Assembly: GCF_000015025.1 (NCBI RefSeq)
Contig: NC_008578.1
Coordinates: 1,740,001-1,772,000, forward strand
Direction of reading: 5' to 3'
DNA: 32,000 nucleotides
Origin: Acidothermus cellulolyticus 11B
Lineage (GTDB): Bacteria; Actinomycetota; Actinomycetes; Acidothermales; Acidothermaceae
This document shows positions 4,628 through 29,548 of this stretch, piece by piece. Position 1 is the stretch's first letter, and each line of letters begins with the position of its first letter. The position numbers were made by a program, and so were the translations under genes. Under the pieces are notes generated by a model, which was not told the DNA's origin, searched no databases, and saw only the letters and a program-made list of their open reading frames with translations.

Positions 4628-5527
4628 CTACCCCCCGGTCTGCTCCGCCAATTTCGCCCGCAGCTGCAGCACCGCCTTGGTGTGCATTTGACAGATCCGG
4701 CTCTCGGTGACGCCGAGAACCTGGCCGATTTCCGCAAGCGTCAGCCCTTCGTAGTAATACAACGTGATAACGATTTTCTCGCGCTCAGGAAGAGCGTTGA
4801 TCGCGCGCGACAGAAGGTACTTCGTCTCCTCGGTCTCGAATGCTTCGACGGGATCCTCAGCTTTGGTGTCTTCGAGCGTGTCGACCAGAGAGAGCCGATC
4901 GCCGCGGTCCCCGCCGACGTTGAGCAATTCATCAAGCGCAATCACATTGACGAAGGATACCTGGCTGAAAATGGCGTGCAGTTCATCGAGACTAATGCCG
5001 AGTTCTGCAGCAACCTCCGCCTCGGTAGGCGTCCGGTGCAGCTTGTGTTCGAGTGCGGCGTACGCTTTCTCGACTTCACGGGCCTTATAGCGGACCGAGC
5101 GGGGAATCCAGTCGATGGCCCGCAATTCATCGATAATCGCGCCCTTAATGCGATTGATGGCATACGTCTCGAACTTGATGGCGCGGTCGAGATCGAACTT
5201 TTCGATCGCGTCAATGAGACCGAAGATCCCATAGGAGACCAAGTCGGCCTGCTCGATATTGGGCGGCAGGCCGACACCGACCCGGCCGGCGACGTACTTG
5301 ACCAGGGGCGAGTAATGCAGGATGAGACGCTCACGCAGCTCGGGGTCGCCGGTCTCCTTGAACCGCCGCCACAGGTCACGGAGCGCCGCCTCGGCGTCCT
5401 CGCGGGAGGTCACCTCCTCCGGTGGGGTTTCGCCGAGTCCTGCCGTCACCTCATCCGGTCCTGCCTGCTCGGTGACCGCGTCAATGTTCTGTCCCACGCC
5501 GTCAGGCTCTGGGATGCGCGCGGTCAT
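4628..5527 (-). CDS. whiG: FliA/WhiG-family (sigma-28 type) RNA polymerase sigma factor
   Basis: Region 2 reads [16 protein letters not shown]...[18 protein letters not shown]...[18 protein letters not shown]. The region 4.2 HTH reads [29 protein letters not shown]. The ATG at 5527 overlaps the xerC end by 26 nt. An in-frame GTG at 5497 is an alternative start. Confidence 0.9.
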
Positions 5528-6554
5528 AGGTTGCCCTCAAACGTTCGATCGATACGTGCGTGTACAGCTGCGTTGTAGCGAGCGTAGCGTGACCAAGTAT
5601 CTCTTGAACGCTGCGCAGATCGGCGCCACCCTCAAGGAGGTGTGTCGCGGCGCTATGGCGCAGCCCGTGTGGACCCAGACGCGGGGCGTCCGGAAGATCA
5701 CGAGTCGCGGCGTACACCACGCGTCGTACCTCCCGCGGGTCGATGCGTCGGCCGCGTACACCAAGAAAGATCGCAGATCCGCTGGCGCCGGTCTGGAACG
5801 CTGGGCGGCCATGCCTCAGCCACTGCTCAACCGCGCGCAGGGCTGGTTGGCCGATCGGCACCGTCCGCTCCTTGTTGCCTTTACCGATCACGTGGATGAC
5901 GGCCCGCACCCAGGCGATGTCATCCGTCTCTAAAGCAACGAGCTCACCAACGCGAATTCCCGTCGCGTAGAGCACCTCAAGAATCGCACGATCACGCAAC
6001 CGGCGGGCCAAGGAGATCGTGTCGACATCTTGCGCGGCGTTTGCCGCCCCGGCGTCCTCGCGGGCGTCCTCGGGTACGCCTATCGCCCCGGCATCCGCTT
6101 CGGCATCCGGGCCGGCACGTTGTTCGGCCCGCTCAAGAACCGCGCGAGCCTGGGCCTGCGTGAGAACATCCGGCAGCGGACGCACCACTTTCGGCGTACC
6201 GAGCCGACGCCCCGGATCGTGGGACATCCACCCCTTCTTGCTGCAGTACGCCGTGAAGACGCGCGCGGCGGCGGCACGTCGGGCGATCGTCGTTCGTGCT
6301 CGACCAACGGTGTCAAGCTTCGCAAGATAGCTGCGCAGCACGGCGACCGTGAGGTCCGCTGGCTCACGGCACCCCAACCGCTCGGCATGATCAACAAGGT
6401 CGCGCAGATCGGTCAGGTACGCCCGAACCGTGTGCGACGAAAGGCTGCGCTCGTACTGAAGGTGGCGCGCGAACAGCTCAACGGCGGTGCCGAGACTCGG
6501 CGTCGTCGCCACATCCGTCACACCCGCTGAAGATACTCTTCGAGTGCCTGGCAC
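5502..6554 (-). CDS. xerC: Tyrosine recombinase XerC (chromosome dimer resolution)
   Basis: The C-terminal catalytic region reads [40 protein letters not shown], and [17 protein letters not shown] lies earlier. Synteny with dprA/yifB/yraN matches M. tuberculosis. The start is GTG at 6554..6552. Confidence 0.9.
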
Positions 6555-6572
6555 ACCGGGGGATTTGGCAAT

Positions 6573-6640
6573 CCGGCGGCATGGCGGCGGTCGGCCCGCC
6601 GTGAACCCGGCGGCATGGCGGCGGTCGGCACCGGGGTCGT
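6573..6640. repeat. Tandem duplication: 34-nt period, 2 copies, first 23 nt identical
   Basis: ccggcggcatggcggcggtcggc occurs at 6573..6595 and again at 6607..6629, in the dprA-xerC spacer. Confidence 0.9.
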
Positions 6641-6756
6641 CGGCCCTCGCGCGAACTCGGCGGAACGGGTCCTTGGCCCGGCTGCGAATCGACTAACCCG
6701 CCACCAGAAAGAGCGAAGCGCATTCTGCCCCGAGGGAAACCCCGTTCCCGGCGGAG

Positions 6757-7932
6757 TTAGCCCGCCACCCGCCAGCCGGCATCGGTGCGCTCCACGAGGC
6801 CGTCGGCGGCAAGCCGGCCCAGGGCAGCGAGCACGTCCGGGAGCGCCAACCCGGCTGCGAGCGCGATGCCGGCCGGACCAGCTGACCGCCGTGCCGGCAC
6901 CGCGTCGAGCACCCTGCGGGTCACCCCGTCGAGCCGGTCGCGGGCGCTGCTCGGCGGCGCACCGGGCGTCGGGGCAATGGACGGGTCGAGGCGACCGACA
7001 ATCTCGACGACGTCATCCGCGCGTGTGATGCAGCAGACATCCGGTTCCCGGAGCAGCTGATTGCTGCCAGCCGACAGCGGCGAGGTTACCGGTCCGGGGA
7101 CGGCCATCACGTGCCTTCCTAGGTCGCGCGCCCGGTTCGCCGTATTCAACGCACCGCTGCGTGCCGCGGCCTCAACGACGATCGTGCCGCTCGCTAGTGC
7201 TGCAATTACCCGATTGCGGACGAGAAACCGATGCCGCATTGGTGCGCACCCTGGCGGCCACTCGCTCAGCAAAAGGCCCGTCGACAGGATGCGGTGAAAC
7301 AGCGTCGCGTTGCCGCGTGGATAACAGACGTCAACACCGCACGCAAGCACGGCCACCGTCGCGCCGCCACCCGCCAACGCGCCCCGATGTGCGGCCGCGT
7401 CGATCCCGTAGGCGCCGCCACTTACCACGAGGAAACCCCGCTCGGCGAGCCCGATAGCGAACTCGGCGGCGACGTACTCACCGTAACCGGTGGCGGCTCG
7501 GGAACCGACGACGGCGATCGTGCGATCGGCATCGGCAAGTTTTCCCGCACCGCGCAGCCAGAGCCCGACCGGCGGCACGCTGTATTCGCCAGGCACCCGA
7601 CCGAGATCGTCGAGCTGGGCGGGCCACTCGGAGTCGCCGGGGACAACAAAGCAACCGCCAAGCCGTTCCACGGCGTGCAGATCTGCTTCAGGCCGTGCCG
7701 TCGACAGCCGCGTTCGCCAGTGCCGGGCGTTCGTCACGGGCAACCGATCACGCCGCAGATCACGGACAATCTCCGTCGCGGCATAGCGGGTCAGCAACGC
7801 AGCGAGCTCCCGATCACCTGGTTCCGTCACACGGGACAGCAATGCTCGGGCTAATCGCTCCGTTGCATCAGCCCTGGCCGGCCTGCTGATGGTCGACGCC
7901 GGTTGTTCCTTGCCCGCGTTCCCGGTTGTCAT
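6757..7932 (-). CDS. dprA: DNA-processing protein DprA (Smf)
   Basis: The Rossmann-like core reads VGSRAATGYGEYVAAEFAIGLAERGFLVVSGGAYGIDAAAHRGAL...RHRFLVRNRVIAALASGTIVVEAAARSGALNTA, followed by a C-terminal winged-helix tail. I place the start at ATG 7932..7930, which forms an ATGA overlap with the upstream stop (7929..7931). The ORF-track start at 8400 would overlap the yifB-like gene by 470 nt. Confidence 0.9.
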   Translation of the reverse strand: MTTGNAGKEQPASTISRPARADATERLARALLSRVTEPGDRELAALLTRYAATEIVRDLRRDRLPVTNARHWRTRLSTARPEADLHAVERLGGCFVVPGDSEWPAQLDDLGRVPGEYSVPPVGLWLRGAGKLADADRTIAVVGSRAATGYGEYVAAEFAIGLAERGFLVVSGGAYGIDAAAHRGALAGGGATVAVLACGVDVCYPRGNATLFHRILSTGLLLSEWPPGCAPMRHRFLVRNRVIAALASGTIVVEAAARSGALNTANRARDLGRHVMAVPGPVTSPLSAGSNQLLREPDVCCITRADDVVEIVGRLDPSIAPTPGAPPSSARDRLDGVTRRVLDAVPARRSAGPAGIALAAGLALPDVLAALGRLAADGLVERTDAGWRVAG

Positions 7933-13882: not shown

Positions 13883-13892
13883 AAAGCGCCCT
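13883..13892. repeat. Right-hand-gene-proximal copy of the 10-bp direct repeat AAAGCGCCCT that flanks the 475-aa ORF cassette
   Basis: The exact decamer aaagcgccct occurs at 13883..13892 (overlapping the ORF stop) and again at 15380..15389. Confidence 0.6.
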
Positions 13893-15318
13893 ACGCCATC
13901 GGCAGGACAAGTTCGAACCGCCACCGCGTCCCCGTCCATGGATACAACGCCACCACGACCTGTCCCGGCGGGGCCGCGGAACGCGAGGTGACCTCATCGT
14001 GGACGATACGTGGATAAATACTCGTCCAATTTTCCAGAATGTGCCGGAGAACCACATCGAGACCGTCACCGCAGGTGCGCAGCTCATACGTCAGCCAATC
14101 GAAAATCTCTTGGGCGAGGTCCTTGGTGCGCGTCGGCTTCCACCACTCAAAGTCAAGGCCGCAGTACATAAAGTCAGTGCCTAAAACGTAGGAAGCCGCT
14201 AAAATACTGACGGAATCGTTAGAGCCGACGCCTGACACACGCCCAAGTTGCAGCCCACTGCCCTGCCCCGCCGCATTGCCGGCACCAACAGCAGCTGGAA
14301 CTTCTTTATAACCCAGAACGCCGCAGAGAAAATCACGAAATTCAGCACGTGCGGTCTGCAGATCCACGCGACGTCCTGCGAGGGTATTCAGCAACGAACC
14401 CAGTTCCCAGGTAGCAAAATGCCCGTACCGCGCGCTGAACACTCCAACCTCGGTCAGCCGAAAGCGGTCGTCAAAGTCGAGGAGCACATAGCCCACCAGT
14501 TGCAACAGAGTTCTCATCGTGATCGTCGATTCCGCGGAGGTCTTGAGTTCAAGCAGCAGCCCGGCCGCGATGAGATCTGCGTCGGCGGCAAGAAGTTGGG
14601 AGCCGGTAAAGACCGGTCCAAGTGCCCACTCGCCGACACGATCCGAAAGCCGGGGGAGGAGCACGGTGTCGAAAAGGTGTCGGAAGGCGATCAGCTGCTC
14701 GATACCCGCAGGAGGTGCCAGCAACAAAAGGTCCGCTGCAGTAGGGAGCTGGCCGCGCAGTTGAGCAAGCGGACCGCTGCGCGCTACCGTCGGACCAGCA
14801 CGGTACACCTCGGTCAGGAGGGCCAACGCCCAGCACGCTCGGGCCAACACCTCCGCGTCGACCACACTCCCCGGGATAGGTCCTGCGAACACAGCCGCGT
14901 GGTCGCCGTTCGCACCCACGAATGGAACATCGAGGCGCCGAGCCAGGTCAATCAGAGCCGGGCAGAGAATGAGTCCCCCGTTTCCGGCAATGACAGCACC
15001 GCCGCGCGCCACCGAAAGATCCGGCTGTGGATGGATGAGAAACCGCAGGAGCCAGTCAGCGGCGGTCCCCACCGTGCCGGGATTGACCGCGGCGGCGGGT
15101 GCTGGCGGAACGACGATGTCTCGAGGCCGGGTCGCTCGAATAGCTCGCTGCACCTGCGGCACCCCAGCGCCATACCGCTCCTGGAGAAAGCGCCGCACCG
15201 GCGAACCGGTCGTCTTGAGCTCTTGCGTCAGTGACCGAAACATCTCGGGCCTTTCGTCGGTAGCACACCAAGAACGCACCGCCGAAGTAAAGGAATCGGC
15301 TGCTGATTTCTCCGTCAT
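13891..15318 (-). CDS. Hypothetical 475-aa protein with a RecB/Cas4-like PD-(D/E)XK nuclease signature; accessory insertion
   Basis: It is a long ORF on the operon strand with an ATG start at 15318. Numbered from M1, the motifs are D246-A-D248-LI, LLL-E257-L-K259-T and Q273-LVG-Y277 (codons 14488..14583). A Gly-rich linker covers residues 341-367, followed by a Trp-rich C-terminal module. G+C is lower than in the neighbours and many codons end in A/T. No clear SD is visible. Confidence 0.7.
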
Positions 15319-26191: not shown

Positions 26192-27433
26192 TTACGGGGA
26201 GGTAAACGCCTCCGGGACACCGAGCAAGGCGTCCACGAAGGCCGCCGGATCGAACGGCGCAAGGTCGTCCGGGCCTTCGCCGAGACCGACAAGCTTGACC
26301 GGGATGCCTAACTCACGCTGCACGGAAATGACGATGCCGCCCTTGGCGGTGCCGTCCAGTTTTGTCAGCACAACACCGGTGACGGCGACGACGTCGGTGA
26401 AGACACGCGCTTGCGTGAGACCGTTCTGGCCGGTGGTGGCGTCGAGAACGAGGAGAACTTCACTGACCGGACACCGCCGTTCCACGACGCGCTTGACCTT
26501 GCCGAGCTCATCCATGAGACCCGTCTTGGTGTGCAGCCGCCCGGCGGTGTCAATGACGACGACGTCCGCCTCCTGCTCGATCGCCACCCGGACGGCGTCG
26601 AAAGCGACCGATGCCGGGTCGGCCCGTTCCGCACCCCGCACGACGGGGACCCCTACCCGCCGTCCCCAGGTCTCGAGTTGATCCGCGGCGGCGGCCCGGA
26701 AGGTGTCGGCAGCCCCGAGAACGACGCTCCGTCCGTCGGCGACGAGGAGCCGCGCGAGCTTGCCGACGGTCGTCGTCTTCCCGGTTCCGTTGACCCCGAC
26801 GACCAAAACGACGGCGGGTCCTGCGGCGGTCCGCGTCGTCGCCAAGGATCGGTCCAGCCCGGCGTCGACGGTATCAAGCAGGCTGCGACGCAGCATGGCG
26901 CGGACGTCGTCCGGTGACCGGACACCCATGACCTTCGCCTCAGTGCGCAACCGCTCGACAAGTTCGGTGGTCGCGGCGACGCCGACATCGGCGGTGAGCA
27001 GCAGGTCTTCGATCTCCTGCCACGTTGCGTCGTCCAGCCGTTCCCGGCTCAGCAAGGCGAAAAGGCCGCGACCGAGCACGGATTCGGAGCGCGCCAGGCG
27101 GGATCGAAGCCGAATCATCCGGCCGGCTGCGACGGCGGGGACGTCCCGCTCGTCGCCCGCCGCGGCAGCGGATTCCGCCACTGCAGCTGCGGATTCCGCC
27201 TCCGGCGCCGCGGCCGGCGCCACGGCCGGCTCGGCCTGCTGGGCCTGCTGGACGGCCGGCGCGGCCTCCTGGGCGACCGGCTCAGCCTGCCGGGTGGCAG
27301 GCGTGGCCGGCGTGGCCGGCGGTGCGCCGGCGCCGGCGCCCCGCGGGCGACGCCCGGCGCGTACGCCGAGGTAAACCGCCCCAGCCGCGAGGAGGACGAC
27401 AATCCCGATCAACGCTGCAATGAGCCACACCAC
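26192..27433 (-). CDS. ftsY: Signal recognition particle receptor FtsY
   Basis: An N-terminal TM segment (VWLIAALIGIVVLLAAGAVYL) is followed by an Ala/Pro/Glu-rich linker. The NG domain shows VVGVNGTGKTTTVGKLA, DTAGRL and TKLDGTAKGG. Confidence 0.95.
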   Translation of the reverse strand: MVWLIAALIGIVVLLAAGAVYLGVRAGRRPRGAGAGAPPATPATPATRQAEPVAQEAAPAVQQAQQAEPAVAPAAAPEAESAAAVAESAAAAGDERDVPAVAAGRMIRLRSRLARSESVLGRGLFALLSRERLDDATWQEIEDLLLTADVGVAATTELVERLRTEAKVMGVRSPDDVRAMLRRSLLDTVDAGLDRSLATTRTAAGPAVVLVVGVNGTGKTTTVGKLARLLVADGRSVVLGAADTFRAAAADQLETWGRRVGVPVVRGAERADPASVAFDAVRVAIEQEADVVVIDTAGRLHTKTGLMDELGKVKRVVERRCPVSEVLLVLDATTGQNGLTQARVFTDVVAVTGVVLTKLDGTAKGGIVISVQRELGIPVKLVGLGEGPDDLAPFDPAAFVDALLGVPEAFTSP

Positions 27434-27507: not shown

Positions 27508-27621
27508 GTTGGGCACCGTGCCGCCCGGTTGAGCCCTTGCGGCAGCTCGCATTCCCTGCCGCCCGGTTGCGGCTGTCCAGCACCTCGCATTCCCTGCCGC
27601 CCGGTTGTCCACAAGCGGCGG
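27508..27621. repeat. Three tandem units of 38 nt sharing the core TGCCGCCCGGTTG; units 2 and 3 share 24 identical nt
   Basis: ctcgcattccctgccgcccggttg occurs at 27546..27569 and at 27584..27607. The 13-nt core also occurs at 27519..27531, so the cores are spaced 38 and 38 nt apart. The array lies in the divergent spacer between ftsY and the toxin-like ORF. Confidence 0.85.
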
Positions 27622-27667
27622 TTGCGTGAACTGCAGCACAACCGTTCTGCCACTACCGTTCCGCGAC

Positions 27668-29098
27668 ATGACCGACAATCCGCCGCCCATTTCCGGCGAC
27701 CCGCACGCCATCGCCGAAACCGCCCGTCGCCTCATCGCGGCCGCGACCGGCGTGTCCGACGTCGGGCAACGCCTGCATTTCCTTGCTGCGACAGACAATT
27801 TCTGGTGGGGTACCGCGGCGGAGCGTGCGCACGATCGGACGCTTCACCTCGCCGCACCGCTGACCGTCGTTGCGGAGGCGTATCGCGCCGGCGGGAAGGT
27901 GCTGCGGCGCTACGCCATCCAATTGGACGACCTCCAGCACGAAGCCGAACGCGCCCAGCGTCGGGTCAGCCAGGCGGAAAGCGACGTGGCGGCGGCCCGC
28001 CACGCGCTCACGAGTGCCCTCGCGCACGATGCCGCAACCCGATCCGTCGCATGGGGACTGGGGGTTCCACCGCCGCCGGCCACCGCGCCGCGGTACAGCG
28101 CAGCCGTGACGGACGCCGAACACCAGCTCGCCGCCGCGAAAGAGCAGTTCACGTCCTGTCAAGAGAAATTTGCAGAATTGGCGCGGTCCACCGCACGCCG
28201 ATTGGACAACCTCCAACCGCCGGCACGCGACCACCGTCCGTGGTGGCACACCGTCACTCACCCGATGGCCCACTGGATTTCCCATCACTGGGCACACTTT
28301 CTCCGGCAGACCGCGCGGCTTGCCCAGAGCATCGGCACGGTCGCCGGTGTTGTCGCCCTGCTTCTCGCGGCGGTGGCCATCGCCTTTCCACCGCTGGAAA
28401 TCGCAGCCGGCGCCACGGAAGCCCTTGCCGCCGTCAGTAACACAACAGCGGGCGTCGCCCGGGCCGCTGTCGAGCTCTCCGAACCCACCGGCCGAACGGC
28501 GGGACTGGTGGACCTGGCGACCGTCAGTCTTCCCGGCCCGGCGCGGCGCATCGTCGCGAAAACCGGCGTCGGCCGGCTGGAAGCACCGACGCATCTCGCC
28601 ATCAGGCGGCCGCCACCGCCGTCGCGGGACATCCCCCTCGGGTTCCGCAATCGAGACGAATTCGCCGCATTTGGCGAGAGATTACAACGCGGATTAGCTG
28701 AGGCCGGGTATCCTAACGCGGTGGCAATCATGCAAGGGAGTTCGGTGACCGGCGTCAGCTTCCGGACGAAGGAGCCGTTCGACGTCGGACGCCGCAGCGA
28801 TTTCGATATCGCGTTGTGCGACGAGTCGCTGTTCCGCGCAGCAAAACATCACGGTGTTGATCTGCGCGCCTATGAGCGGACCGCTCCATTGAAAGCCCGA
28901 AAGAAAGAGAGCGTCGAGATCGCCCGACAGCTTGGCCTTGACGGACTCCAGCGCGAGCTCAGCGCCCGGGCCCGCCGCGACGTGGACTTCATGATTTTCC
29001 GGTATACCGGGACGGCGCTCATTCGGGCGCAGAGTATTCCTTTTCCGCCGTGGCGGGACCGGGTGCTCGGCCCGTCGCAACCGACACGATTCCAGTGA
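27668..29098 (+). CDS. Putative polymorphic-toxin-like protein: WXG100/T7SS-type N-terminal helical domain, one TM-like segment, and a C-terminal nucleotidyltransferase-fold-like domain
   Basis: Third-codon positions are G/C-biased in this frame. The N-terminus reads GDPHAIAETARRL....FWWGTAAERAHDR...AYRAGGKVLRRYAIQLDDLQHEAERAQRR, with the WxG at 27803..27811. A hydrophobic segment IGTVAGVVALLLAAVAIAFP spans 28331..28390. The C-terminus has QGSS (from 28736), SDFDIAL (28799..28807) and DVDFMIF. I prefer the ATG 27668 start to TTG 27605 or GTG 27626. Confidence 0.68.
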   Translation: MTDNPPPISGDPHAIAETARRLIAAATGVSDVGQRLHFLAATDNFWWGTAAERAHDRTLHLAAPLTVVAEAYRAGGKVLRRYAIQLDDLQHEAERAQRRVSQAESDVAAARHALTSALAHDAATRSVAWGLGVPPPPATAPRYSAAVTDAEHQLAAAKEQFTSCQEKFAELARSTARRLDNLQPPARDHRPWWHTVTHPMAHWISHHWAHFLRQTARLAQSIGTVAGVVALLLAAVAIAFPPLEIAAGATEALAAVSNTTAGVARAAVELSEPTGRTAGLVDLATVSLPGPARRIVAKTGVGRLEAPTHLAIRRPPPPSRDIPLGFRNRDEFAAFGERLQRGLAEAGYPNAVAIMQGSSVTGVSFRTKEPFDVGRRSDFDIALCDESLFRAAKHHGVDLRAYERTAPLKARKKESVEIARQLGLDGLQRELSARARRDVDFMIFRYTGTALIRAQSIPFPPWRDRVLGPSQPTRFQ

Positions 29099-29107
29099 GG
29101 ACGACGC

Positions 29108-29548
29108 ATGACCACACGGACTTCGCGCCGGACGCATCTCGCCGACGTGTACGGCGCATTCGGCGACGCATCGGGAGCATGGGATCTCGCCCTGGTCGGC
29201 ATGGGACGGGTGCTGCAGATCCTGGAGACCCAACTTGGCCTCAGCTTCGAGGCGCATGACAGCTCGTACTGCAACGGCCTGTACTTTGCGCAGTGCGGAC
29301 CGGACGAATCGTTCTCCGTGACGGTCTACAACAATGCGCCCTTCGACGACCTCGAGGAGATCGTGCATCTCCAATTCGCCGACTTTCCGGTCGTTATCAA
29401 CGTGTCCGGAGATCCCGCGGCGGTCGAACGGATTCGCCACCATTTCCGCGAACTCGGATACACGCTGCTGACACGCACGACCGTCGTAGAGTCCGATGAC
29501 CCGCCGCAGGACGCCTCCGACGACGACCGCTCTCGGACGCCGCAGTGA
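29108..29548 (+). CDS. Small acidic protein (146 aa), candidate cognate immunity protein
   Basis: The ATG at 29108 lies 9 nt after the upstream stop, and GAGGA (29097..29101) overlaps that stop. Codon bias is good. The C-terminus is acidic (ESDDPPQDASDDD). No family was recognised. The LETQLGLSF....NGLYF stretch is only loosely SUKH/SMI1-like. Confidence 0.6.
   Translation: MTTRTSRRTHLADVYGAFGDASGAWDLALVGMGRVLQILETQLGLSFEAHDSSYCNGLYFAQCGPDESFSVTVYNNAPFDDLEEIVHLQFADFPVVINVSGDPAAVERIRHHFRELGYTLLTRTTVVESDDPPQDASDDDRSRTPQ

Follow-up and report, generated by a model that had tools for sequence, protein, structure and literature searches.

Among the predicted toxin domains of bacterial polymorphic toxins, Ntox45 is the closest described counterpart of the domain studied here. 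It was recorded as an alpha+beta domain with a DxD motif in Actinobacteria, Alphaproteobacteria and Bacteroidetes, in association with HINT and RHS modules; type II secretion (T2SS) was the only trafficking route given, and no immunity protein was listed for it (Zhang et al. 2012, PMC3482391). NTox45 has also been described as a minimal Pol-beta nucleotidyltransferase (NTase) toxin domain (Iyer et al. 2017, PMC5512222). Here, we analyzed a locus of Acidothermus cellulolyticus 11B (NC_008578.1, positions 1,740,001 to 1,772,000 of the forward strand; this whole stretch of 32,000 nucleotides is called the window), in which a putative toxin gene at 27668–29098 combines an N-terminal type VII secretion system (T7SS) signal domain with a C-terminal domain bearing motifs of Pol-beta-superfamily NTases and is followed by a predicted immunity gene. 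The explanation to which we give fair credence, taken as a whole, is that 27668–29548 holds two genes, forming a polymorphic toxin-immunity module, that were inserted between ftsY and smc, and that the toxic domain is a divergent minimal Pol-beta NTase, closest in sequence to the minimal nucleotidyltransferase (MNT)/NTP_transf_2 clade.

An earlier note on this DNA knew of no described T7SS-type toxin with such a domain. Ntox45 is probably the same family or a close one, which qualifies that statement, and what stands of it is that Ntox45 has not been linked to a T7SS. All attributes listed for Ntox45 (alpha+beta, DxD, HINT, RHS and the three taxa) fit the present family, the two being compared by description only, and no model answering to Ntox45 was found in Pfam. 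Likened by its published description, the present family is probably Ntox45 itself or a sister family. Unlike the Ntox45 record, it extends to proteins of the T7SS-signal/WXG100, haemagglutinin (type V secretion system, T5SS), PT-TG and eCIS types, and an immunity family is dedicated to it. New relative to that record are these delivery contexts, the immunity family, how large and widespread the toxin family is, and the absence of a third catalytic carboxylate. The window's domain is a T7SS-linked member of a predicted but uncharacterized class of polymorphic toxins.

Several characterized NTases offer a comparison. The MNT/NTP_transf_2 clade (PF01909; HI0073, PDB 1NO5; MntA of HepT-MntA) resembles the window's domain in size and in the order of GSxVxG and SDxDxA after helix 1 and strand 1, but in the window's domain 9 residues are inserted between these motifs, strand 3 is preceded by two additional helices, and a third carboxylate is not conserved. 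MntA, which AMPylates a protein (PMC13000451), is an antitoxin; the window's domain, in contrast, would be a toxin, is fused to secretion domains and is accompanied by a family of about 107 aa instead of a HEPN partner. MenT, which nucleotidylates tRNA 3′ ends (PMC7450476), and AbiEii (DUF1814) were named as analogues in the earlier note, together with RelA-SpoT-like toxins. MenT and AbiEii toxins have Pol-beta-type motifs I/II, as does the present domain, and stop growth, as it would. However, MenT has about 290 aa, additional C-terminal motifs III and IV and an intracellular toxin-antitoxin (TA) role, compared with 139 aa for the window's domain. Membership in MenT/AbiEii was rejected, as neither the window's domain nor sets of 34 and 47 family members gave such a Pfam match at E ≤ 10. 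The domain is therefore not a relative of these toxins, and MenT is retained as a plausible model of mechanism. RelA/SpoT-type toxins (Tas1, toxSAS) have an NTase fold, are delivered between bacteria and are paired with immunity proteins (PMC3482391), as is predicted for the present toxin, but they form another subfamily with other motifs, whereas the window's domain resembles the MNT clade; membership was rejected because no RelA_SpoT Pfam match was found for the domain or its family members. Finally, T7SS polymorphic toxins such as EsaD, the Tel toxins and CpnT are built in the same way, with a helical targeting domain at the N-terminus, a variable toxin at the C-terminus and an immunity gene next to the toxin gene, and the window's C-terminal domain differs from their nuclease, NADase, lipid II phosphatase and membrane-depolarising domains.

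Conserved core of the C-terminal domain and its probable relation to Pol-beta nucleotidyltransferases

The following features of the gene and its C-terminal domain are referred to below.

27668–29098, + strand: putative toxin gene, 476 aa from ATG 27668 (497 aa from TTG 27605, the start used for residue numbering)
28631–29047, + strand: C-terminal toxin domain (residues 343–481, 139 aa) with a minimal Pol-beta-NTase-like core, from the family, the model and hhalign
28736–28741, + strand: G378-S379 of GSxVxG (ggg agt), the NTP-binding turn in NTases
28781–28783, + strand: D393, in the 9-residue insertion (PFDxGR)
28799–28807, + strand: D399-F-D401 of the SDxDxA strand (gat ttc gat), predicted metal-binding pair
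28985–28987, + strand: D461 on the third strand, at the site of the canonical third carboxylate, variable in the family
29048–29095, + strand: C-terminal tail of 16 residues, PWRDRVLGPSQPTRFQ (residues 482–497)

On re-reading, the open reading frame and the codons for G378-S379 and D399-F-D401 were as the earlier note had given them. The stop codon lies at 29096–29098, and on public Logan assemblies that hold this locus, gene callers choose the ATG at 27668 as the start. The domain limits claimed at first, residues 342–497, had to be revised: family conservation begins at I343-P344-x-G346-F347 and the conserved domain ends at residue 481. The tail beyond it is gapped, depending on the column, in 102–149 of 153 homologues. 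The window's domain also has a private insertion, KKESVE (residues 434–439, 28904–28921), which comes after the conserved RTxPL loop and before the LGL helix. Both the insertion and the tail are common only to the window and to P0004, a relative that is 96% identical.

Conservation was read from an alignment of 153 family members, all of them at most 58% identical to the window apart from the 96% relative. F356, G378, S379, T382, D399 and D401 were invariant (153/153); G383, F392, D393, S398, R421, R425, T426 and R458 were each kept in at least 149 members, and R396 in 143. The hG[GS]...[DE]h[DE]h signature proposed earlier is present as M376-Q-G378-S379 and D399-F-D401-I. Loss of D399 and D401 among homologues had been named as a sign of a mistaken reading, and neither residue varies in a single member; the other sign named, a predicted structure lacking an NTase fold, did not arise either. 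The conserved block QGS[SA]VTG-x14-SD[FY]D[IV]A corresponds to GSxVxG...SDxDxA of the MNT/AadA clade, with a spacer that exceeds the MNT pattern by 9 residues, in line with the long spacer that had been remarked upon.

For the sequence comparison, the MNT reference consisted of HI0073 (sequence checked, identical to PDB 1NO5) and 120 homologues carrying PF18765/PF01909. When the 153-sequence toxin alignment was compared with the 120 HI0073-type MNT sequences, hhalign returned a score of 28.3 (P 4.3e-4, probability 34%); the controls scored 14.0 (reversed MNT alignment), 15.2 (the unrelated immunity family) and, for 100 column shuffles, a mean of 12.3 (sd 2.3, maximum 20.1). This alignment pairs strand 1, GSxVxG, a 9-residue gap and SDxDxA of the toxin domain with their MNT counterparts, so that G378-S379 aligns with G34-S35 of HI0073 and D399/D401 with D46/D48; its greedy extension places strand 3 unreliably. 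Because the motif residues are invariant across phyla and the score of 28.3 lies above the shuffle maximum of 20.1, the GS/DxD pattern, as judged from the alignments, exceeds chance. Single sequences gave less: for an approximate AadA and for the NTase domain of the window's GlnD, the probability against the family profile was below 2%, and the piece aligned with GlnD was the SDxDxxL strand. Among 47 family members, NTP_transf_2 (PF01909) was the commonest Pfam match (7/47, best E 0.0085, 16.9 bits); it covered profile positions 4–83 of 93 in two divergent members. No other enzymatic Pfam family recurred among these 47.

The layout anticipated in the earlier note (a helix, a strand ending in G-S, a DxD strand and a later strand) was present in an AlphaFold2 (AF2) model built from 47 sequences (pLDDT 91.1, pTM 0.84). 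Its order is helix 350–366, strand 373–377, G378-S379, a short helix 379–382, the insertion, strand 400–405 with D399/D401, helix 407–415, two further helices, strand 460–465 and a final helix. Foldseek against the PDB, which had been suggested as a check, ranked Pol-beta-superfamily NTases of at least seven distinct families in places 1–28, none of them significant (TENT5B, class II tRNA NTases, Pol mu, Pol beta, TUT1, Cid1 and AadA); entries named 'tRNA processing enzyme' are, we take it, tRNA NTases. From these comparisons, we consider homology of the domain to the Pol-beta superfamily very probable, with no single test passing a conventional threshold.

The third carboxylate requires separate treatment. 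D461 had been proposed for this role, and it does lie on strand 460–465; however, the position is held by Asp in only 3 of 153 members and by Asn in 94 (K 15, S 13, H 11, A 5, R 4, T 2), so that, judging from the alignment, D461 cannot be an essential catalytic residue of the family. Among enzymes in which two metals serve to activate a hydroxyl nucleophile, lack of the third carboxylate is unusual. D393 (150/153) is the sole other near-invariant carboxylate and might possibly substitute for it. The absence of a conserved third carboxylate is a real departure from the definition of an NTase, and catalysis may differ from a standard two-metal nucleotidyl transfer.

Family distribution, delivery modules and the predicted downstream immunity gene

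The domain was found in 628 representative clusters (50% identity level) at E ≤ 1e-3, in a scan without word index, and in 410 at E ≤ 1e-10. The match reaches the protein C-terminus, with a median tail of 0 residues in 152 retrieved proteins, and the host proteins range from 150 to 2795 aa. A Pfam scan of 79 full-length members identified N-terminal modules of many types: RHS_repeat in 10, T7SS_signal in 9, PT-HINT in 4, DUF637 (haemagglutinin) and WXG100_2 in 3 each, WXG100 and PPE in 2 each (best E for PPE 1.2e-6), and PT-TG, PT-VENN, eCIS_core and SpvB/TcdB in 1 each. Among the annotations in the source records are 'filamentous hemagglutinin' and 'RHS repeat-associated protein'. The PPE, eCIS_core and SpvB/TcdB matches suggest that ESX-type PPE carriers, contractile injection systems and Tc-like toxins also deliver the domain. 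Since the domain is always C-terminal and is joined to at least eight kinds of N-terminal trafficking module, the assignment of residues 343–481 as a real C-terminal polymorphic-toxin domain is supported; the PF21725 N-terminus, the C-terminal-only family and the cognate immunity gene downstream support, in turn, its role as the toxic module of a T7SS-type polymorphic toxin. The window's domain belongs to no family in Pfam, NCBIfam or PADLOC and has no Pfam match even at E 10, and searches of PDB sequences with phmmer and with profile hmmsearch returned noise only (a response regulator, Top7 designs and quinolinate synthase).

When one genome was taken for each species, a pattern scan yielded 147 toxin-domain loci, of which 80 were kept. 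These come from Actinomycetota (Frankia, Pseudonocardia, Streptomyces, Amycolatopsis, Actinosynnema, Lentzea and Microbispora), Pseudomonadota (Pseudomonas, Burkholderia, Massilia, Xanthomonas, Neisseria and Shewanella) and other groups (Planctomycetota, Chloroflexota, Bacteroidia and Turicibacter). At the Pseudomonas aeruginosa locus (NZ_CP116719.1, L085:8001–8725), the toxin domain (47.9% identity) is unannotated in the record's gene table, and it is followed by a 107-aa 'hypothetical protein' of the immunity family (WP_063891128.1). The surroundings are an orphan cassette array with deaminase, EndoU, glutamine deamidase and DNA/RNA non-specific endonuclease toxins, interspersed with transposases. 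A second, partial toxin-domain match lies upstream at three other loci (L024, L044 and L059), and five loci (L025, L027, L033, L037 and L073) have two tandem immunity-family genes after one toxin domain; both kinds look like orphan or duplicated cassettes.

In the window, the toxin gene is closely followed by two features.

29097–29101, + strand: GAGGA, a Shine-Dalgarno-like site that overlaps the stop codon of the toxin gene and lies 6 nt ahead of the immunity ATG
29108–29548, + strand: predicted cognate immunity gene (146 aa), starting 9 nt after the toxin stop

With the window's open reading frame as blastp query, the frame directly downstream of the toxin was matched in 41 loci (E < 1e-3) and, with weaker scores, in about 20 others. 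A family profile found a member on the same strand within 400 nt 3′ of the toxin domain in 75 of the 80 loci, in at least six phyla and at a median gap of 7 nt; as the profile was built from the same downstream frames, the blastp count is the independent figure. Because members of one family occupy the place just 3′ of the toxin domain in 75 of 80 loci, we assign 29108–29548, on its genomic context, as the cognate immunity gene. The family has a core of about 107 aa with the motifs YDLYG and HDSSYxGGxYY, which in the window's copy is extended by 12 residues at the N-terminus, interrupted by an insertion and followed by an acidic tail, and no relative was found in Pfam, NCBIfam, PADLOC or the PDB. 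Its conservation is unusually polar: Y59 (numbered in the window's frame) and N76 are invariant, and Y15, G16, S52, Y54, G57 and E68 are nearly so. Since such conserved polar residues are unusual for an immunity family, the protein might act as a decoy acceptor or an enzyme and not as a passive binder.

N-terminal part and genomic surroundings

The N-terminal part and the genes on either side of the module comprise the following features.

27689–28168, + strand: T7SS_signal domain (residues 29–188), Pfam PF21725 'Putative T7SS secretion signal domain', E 3.1e-7
27803–27811, + strand: WxG turn W67-W68-G69 within this domain, read off the translation
28313–28417, + strand: single hydrophobic segment (about residues 237–271; Kyte-Doolittle 19-residue windows above 1.5, peak 2.59)
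28604–28630, + strand: proline-rich linker RRPPPPSRD preceding the toxin domain, from the translation
26192–27433, − strand: ftsY, 5′ of the toxin gene
from 29566, − strand: smc, 3′ of the small downstream frame

The PF21725 match scores 31 bits against a gathering score of 27, and the same architecture with the same C-terminal domain recurs in a syntenic relative, described below. In the window, no small WXG/Lap-type partner genes flank the toxin gene, and we found no literature on PF21725.

The gene order glnD, glnB, amt, ftsY / toxin, small frame / smc was matched on public assemblies of the locus, and the rest of the window, as far as neighbours were scanned, consists of housekeeping-type genes. 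The GC content is 67.5% for the window, 69.5% for the N-terminal part of the toxin, 62.0% for the C-terminal domain and 63.2% for the downstream frame. The drop relative to the N-terminal part would fit an exchange of the C-terminal domain and the downstream frame as one cassette. Between ftsY and the toxin gene, 27516–27629 holds three direct repeats of 38 nt in tandem (100/79/63% identity to the first copy) with CCCTGCCGCCCGGTTG-like cores. They lie just upstream of ATG 27668, span the alternative TTG start and may serve in regulation or recombination.

The nearest syntenic genome is that of an uncultured member of the Actinomycetes (metagenome-assembled genome, CAWALV010000006.1, L031:3013–12421), which has the same insertion site. 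Its ftsY is 78% identical, its T7SS_signal toxin at 5038–6432 carries the same C-terminal domain and its immunity gene lies at 6535–6885. About 4.7 kb of additional genes (an AMP-binding enzyme, a DinB/MDMPI-like protein and a luciferase-like monooxygenase) precede smc, which is 79% identical. Given these extra genes, which the window lacks, the ftsY-smc gap seems to be a variable spot in this lineage. Elsewhere in the window, a 474-aa frame between RNase HII and signal peptidase (13891–15318, − strand) had no Pfam match at E ≤ 1e-5 and was the sole large frame without a family among those scanned.

Competing explanations and possible mode of action

Overall, we propose the following putative mechanism. 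The toxin would be exported, presumably by a T7SS, and would enter a competitor. There, the domain would bind NTP-Mg2+ through the G378-S379-x-V-x-G turn and the D399/D401 pair, with R421, R425 and R458 keeping phosphates of the NTP or of the acceptor in place. A nucleoside monophosphate (NMP) would then be moved onto an essential target, most likely an RNA 3′ end (compare MenT on tRNA) or a protein side chain (compare MntA on HepT), and this transfer would block growth. The producer would be shielded by the immunity protein, presumably through binding of the domain. The secretion route, the enzymatic activity, the substrate, the target and the mode of immunity are inferred, and an RNA end or a protein is a likely target by analogy with these two systems. 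What the analysis does show is the domain family with its invariant residues, its strictly C-terminal placement behind many trafficking modules, its close linkage to a single immunity family, and a likeness to NTases in sequence and structure whose signals are weak one by one but concordant. The chain as a whole, from an exported T7SS-type toxin through NTP-Mg2+ binding and NMP transfer to neutralization by the downstream gene product, appears to us reasonably probable.

A number of results weigh against it. With the 47-sequence model, Foldseek against the PDB gave no significant match (best E 0.5, probability ≤ 0.16, TM ≤ 0.30), and the minimal NTases 1NO5 and 5YEP were not among the matches listed. 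The first AF2 model (4 sequences, pLDDT 74) had no NTase match in the PDB and only meaningless matches; against viral structures, its insignificant top match was named as a Pol-beta NTase, and the model was superseded by the 47-sequence one. The hhalign probability is only 34%, the confident part of that alignment being 34 columns, and all NTP_transf_2 scores (14–17 bits) lie under the gathering score of 21. The family also lacks the canonical third carboxylate. The data do not bear on substrate or target and do not discriminate between RNA and protein. Moreover, ecc/ess-type T7SS genes were not seen in the 32-kb window, in which the scanned neighbours are housekeeping genes and some frames were left unscanned; as no T7SS machinery was seen there, we infer export by a T7SS from the N-terminal domain. 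Of the NTase toxin domain that the earlier note had put forward, the toxin module and the motif register with MNT have thus held up, whereas significant structural similarity and an NTP_transf_2 match above threshold have not been obtained; the order of elements and the 28 top-ranked NTases do fit. Its observation was largely right and is partly confirmed, and its interpretation is plausible but unproven, being partly supported.

Toxicity might instead be exerted by an NTase fold acting on small nucleotides, either by using up ATP or by producing a toxic or signalling nucleotide, as Tas1/toxSAS do with (p)ppApp. The small size of the domain (139 aa), the lack of a recognizable RNA- or protein-binding module in the model and the absence of the carboxylate that normally activates a macromolecular hydroxyl would all suit this explanation, and polymorphic toxin systems are known to include NTase-fold toxins of the RelA/SpoT type (PMC3482391). 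We nevertheless consider it unlikely, since no RelA_SpoT or CD-NTase match was found in Pfam at any threshold and the sequence likeness is to the MNT/NTP_transf_2 clade, whose characterized members modify proteins, antibiotics and RNA ends. A metal-dependent phosphodiesterase or nuclease that uses the DxD in a Toprim-like or other fold, with a convergent likeness to NTases, is a further candidate, and one that we find quite unlikely. Nucleases are the commonest activity of polymorphic toxins (PMC3482391), several arginines are invariant as in nucleic-acid-binding toxins, and the structural matches to NTases are not significant. Yet the invariant GSxVxG after strand 1 and SDxDxA on strand 2 reproduce the MNT motif residue for residue, the recurrent weak Pfam matches are to NTP_transf_2 and to no nuclease family, and all 28 top Foldseek matches are NTases, with no nuclease among them. 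A Toprim-like nuclease was rejected on motif order, as Toprim has a conserved Glu after strand 1 and its DxD after strand 3.

Two explanations without an exported enzyme were also weighed. The tight coupling of the two genes, with a Shine-Dalgarno site that overlaps the toxin stop codon, would be expected of an intracellular TA module such as MenT/MenA or HepT/MntA, no T7SS genes were seen in the window, and the NTase toxins described so far are TA toxins (PMC7450476). However, the toxin domain is preceded by 320 residues with a T7SS_signal above the Pfam threshold, the same domain tips RHS, haemagglutinin/contact-dependent inhibition (CDI), PT-HINT and PT-TG proteins elsewhere, which are export or delivery architectures, and it also occurs in an orphan cassette array; an intracellular module is therefore very improbable. 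That the domain is not an enzyme but, for example, a binding or membrane-active module would agree with the lack of a significant match to a characterized enzyme. We find this scarcely credible, as the invariance falls on small and polar residues (G, S, T, D, D, R, R, R) laid out as a known catalytic motif, and the toxin domain contains no hydrophobic segment.

We return to the NTase explanation. We found no experimental paper on an MNT-like exported toxin in the literature. To our knowledge, nucleotidylation by a secreted polymorphic toxin has never been shown experimentally, and we know of nucleotidylation only from intracellular TA systems (MenT, and MntA as an antitoxin). If the domain is an active NTase, MNT-like nucleotidylation would be added to the chemistries of exported antibacterial toxins. 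More tentatively, we speculate that the domain represents a cross-phylum family of interbacterial toxins (at least 628 clusters at 50% identity, in 147 species or more), delivered by T7SS, T5SS/CDI, Rhs and further routes, that kills by nucleotidylating an essential target with a pared-down Pol-beta NTase lacking the third carboxylate, and for which the immunity protein, with its invariant tyrosine and near-invariant S-x-Y motif, might serve as a decoy acceptor and not as a simple plug. The loss of the third carboxylate poses a specific mechanistic question. The family is broad (Pseudomonas aeruginosa, Burkholderia, Xanthomonas, Neisseria, Frankia and Streptomyces), lies outside Pfam, NCBIfam and the PDB and has a defined immunity partner, which makes it directly testable. 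The A. cellulolyticus locus provides a T7SS-type example of it in actinomycetes, where few antibacterial T7SS toxins have been characterized.

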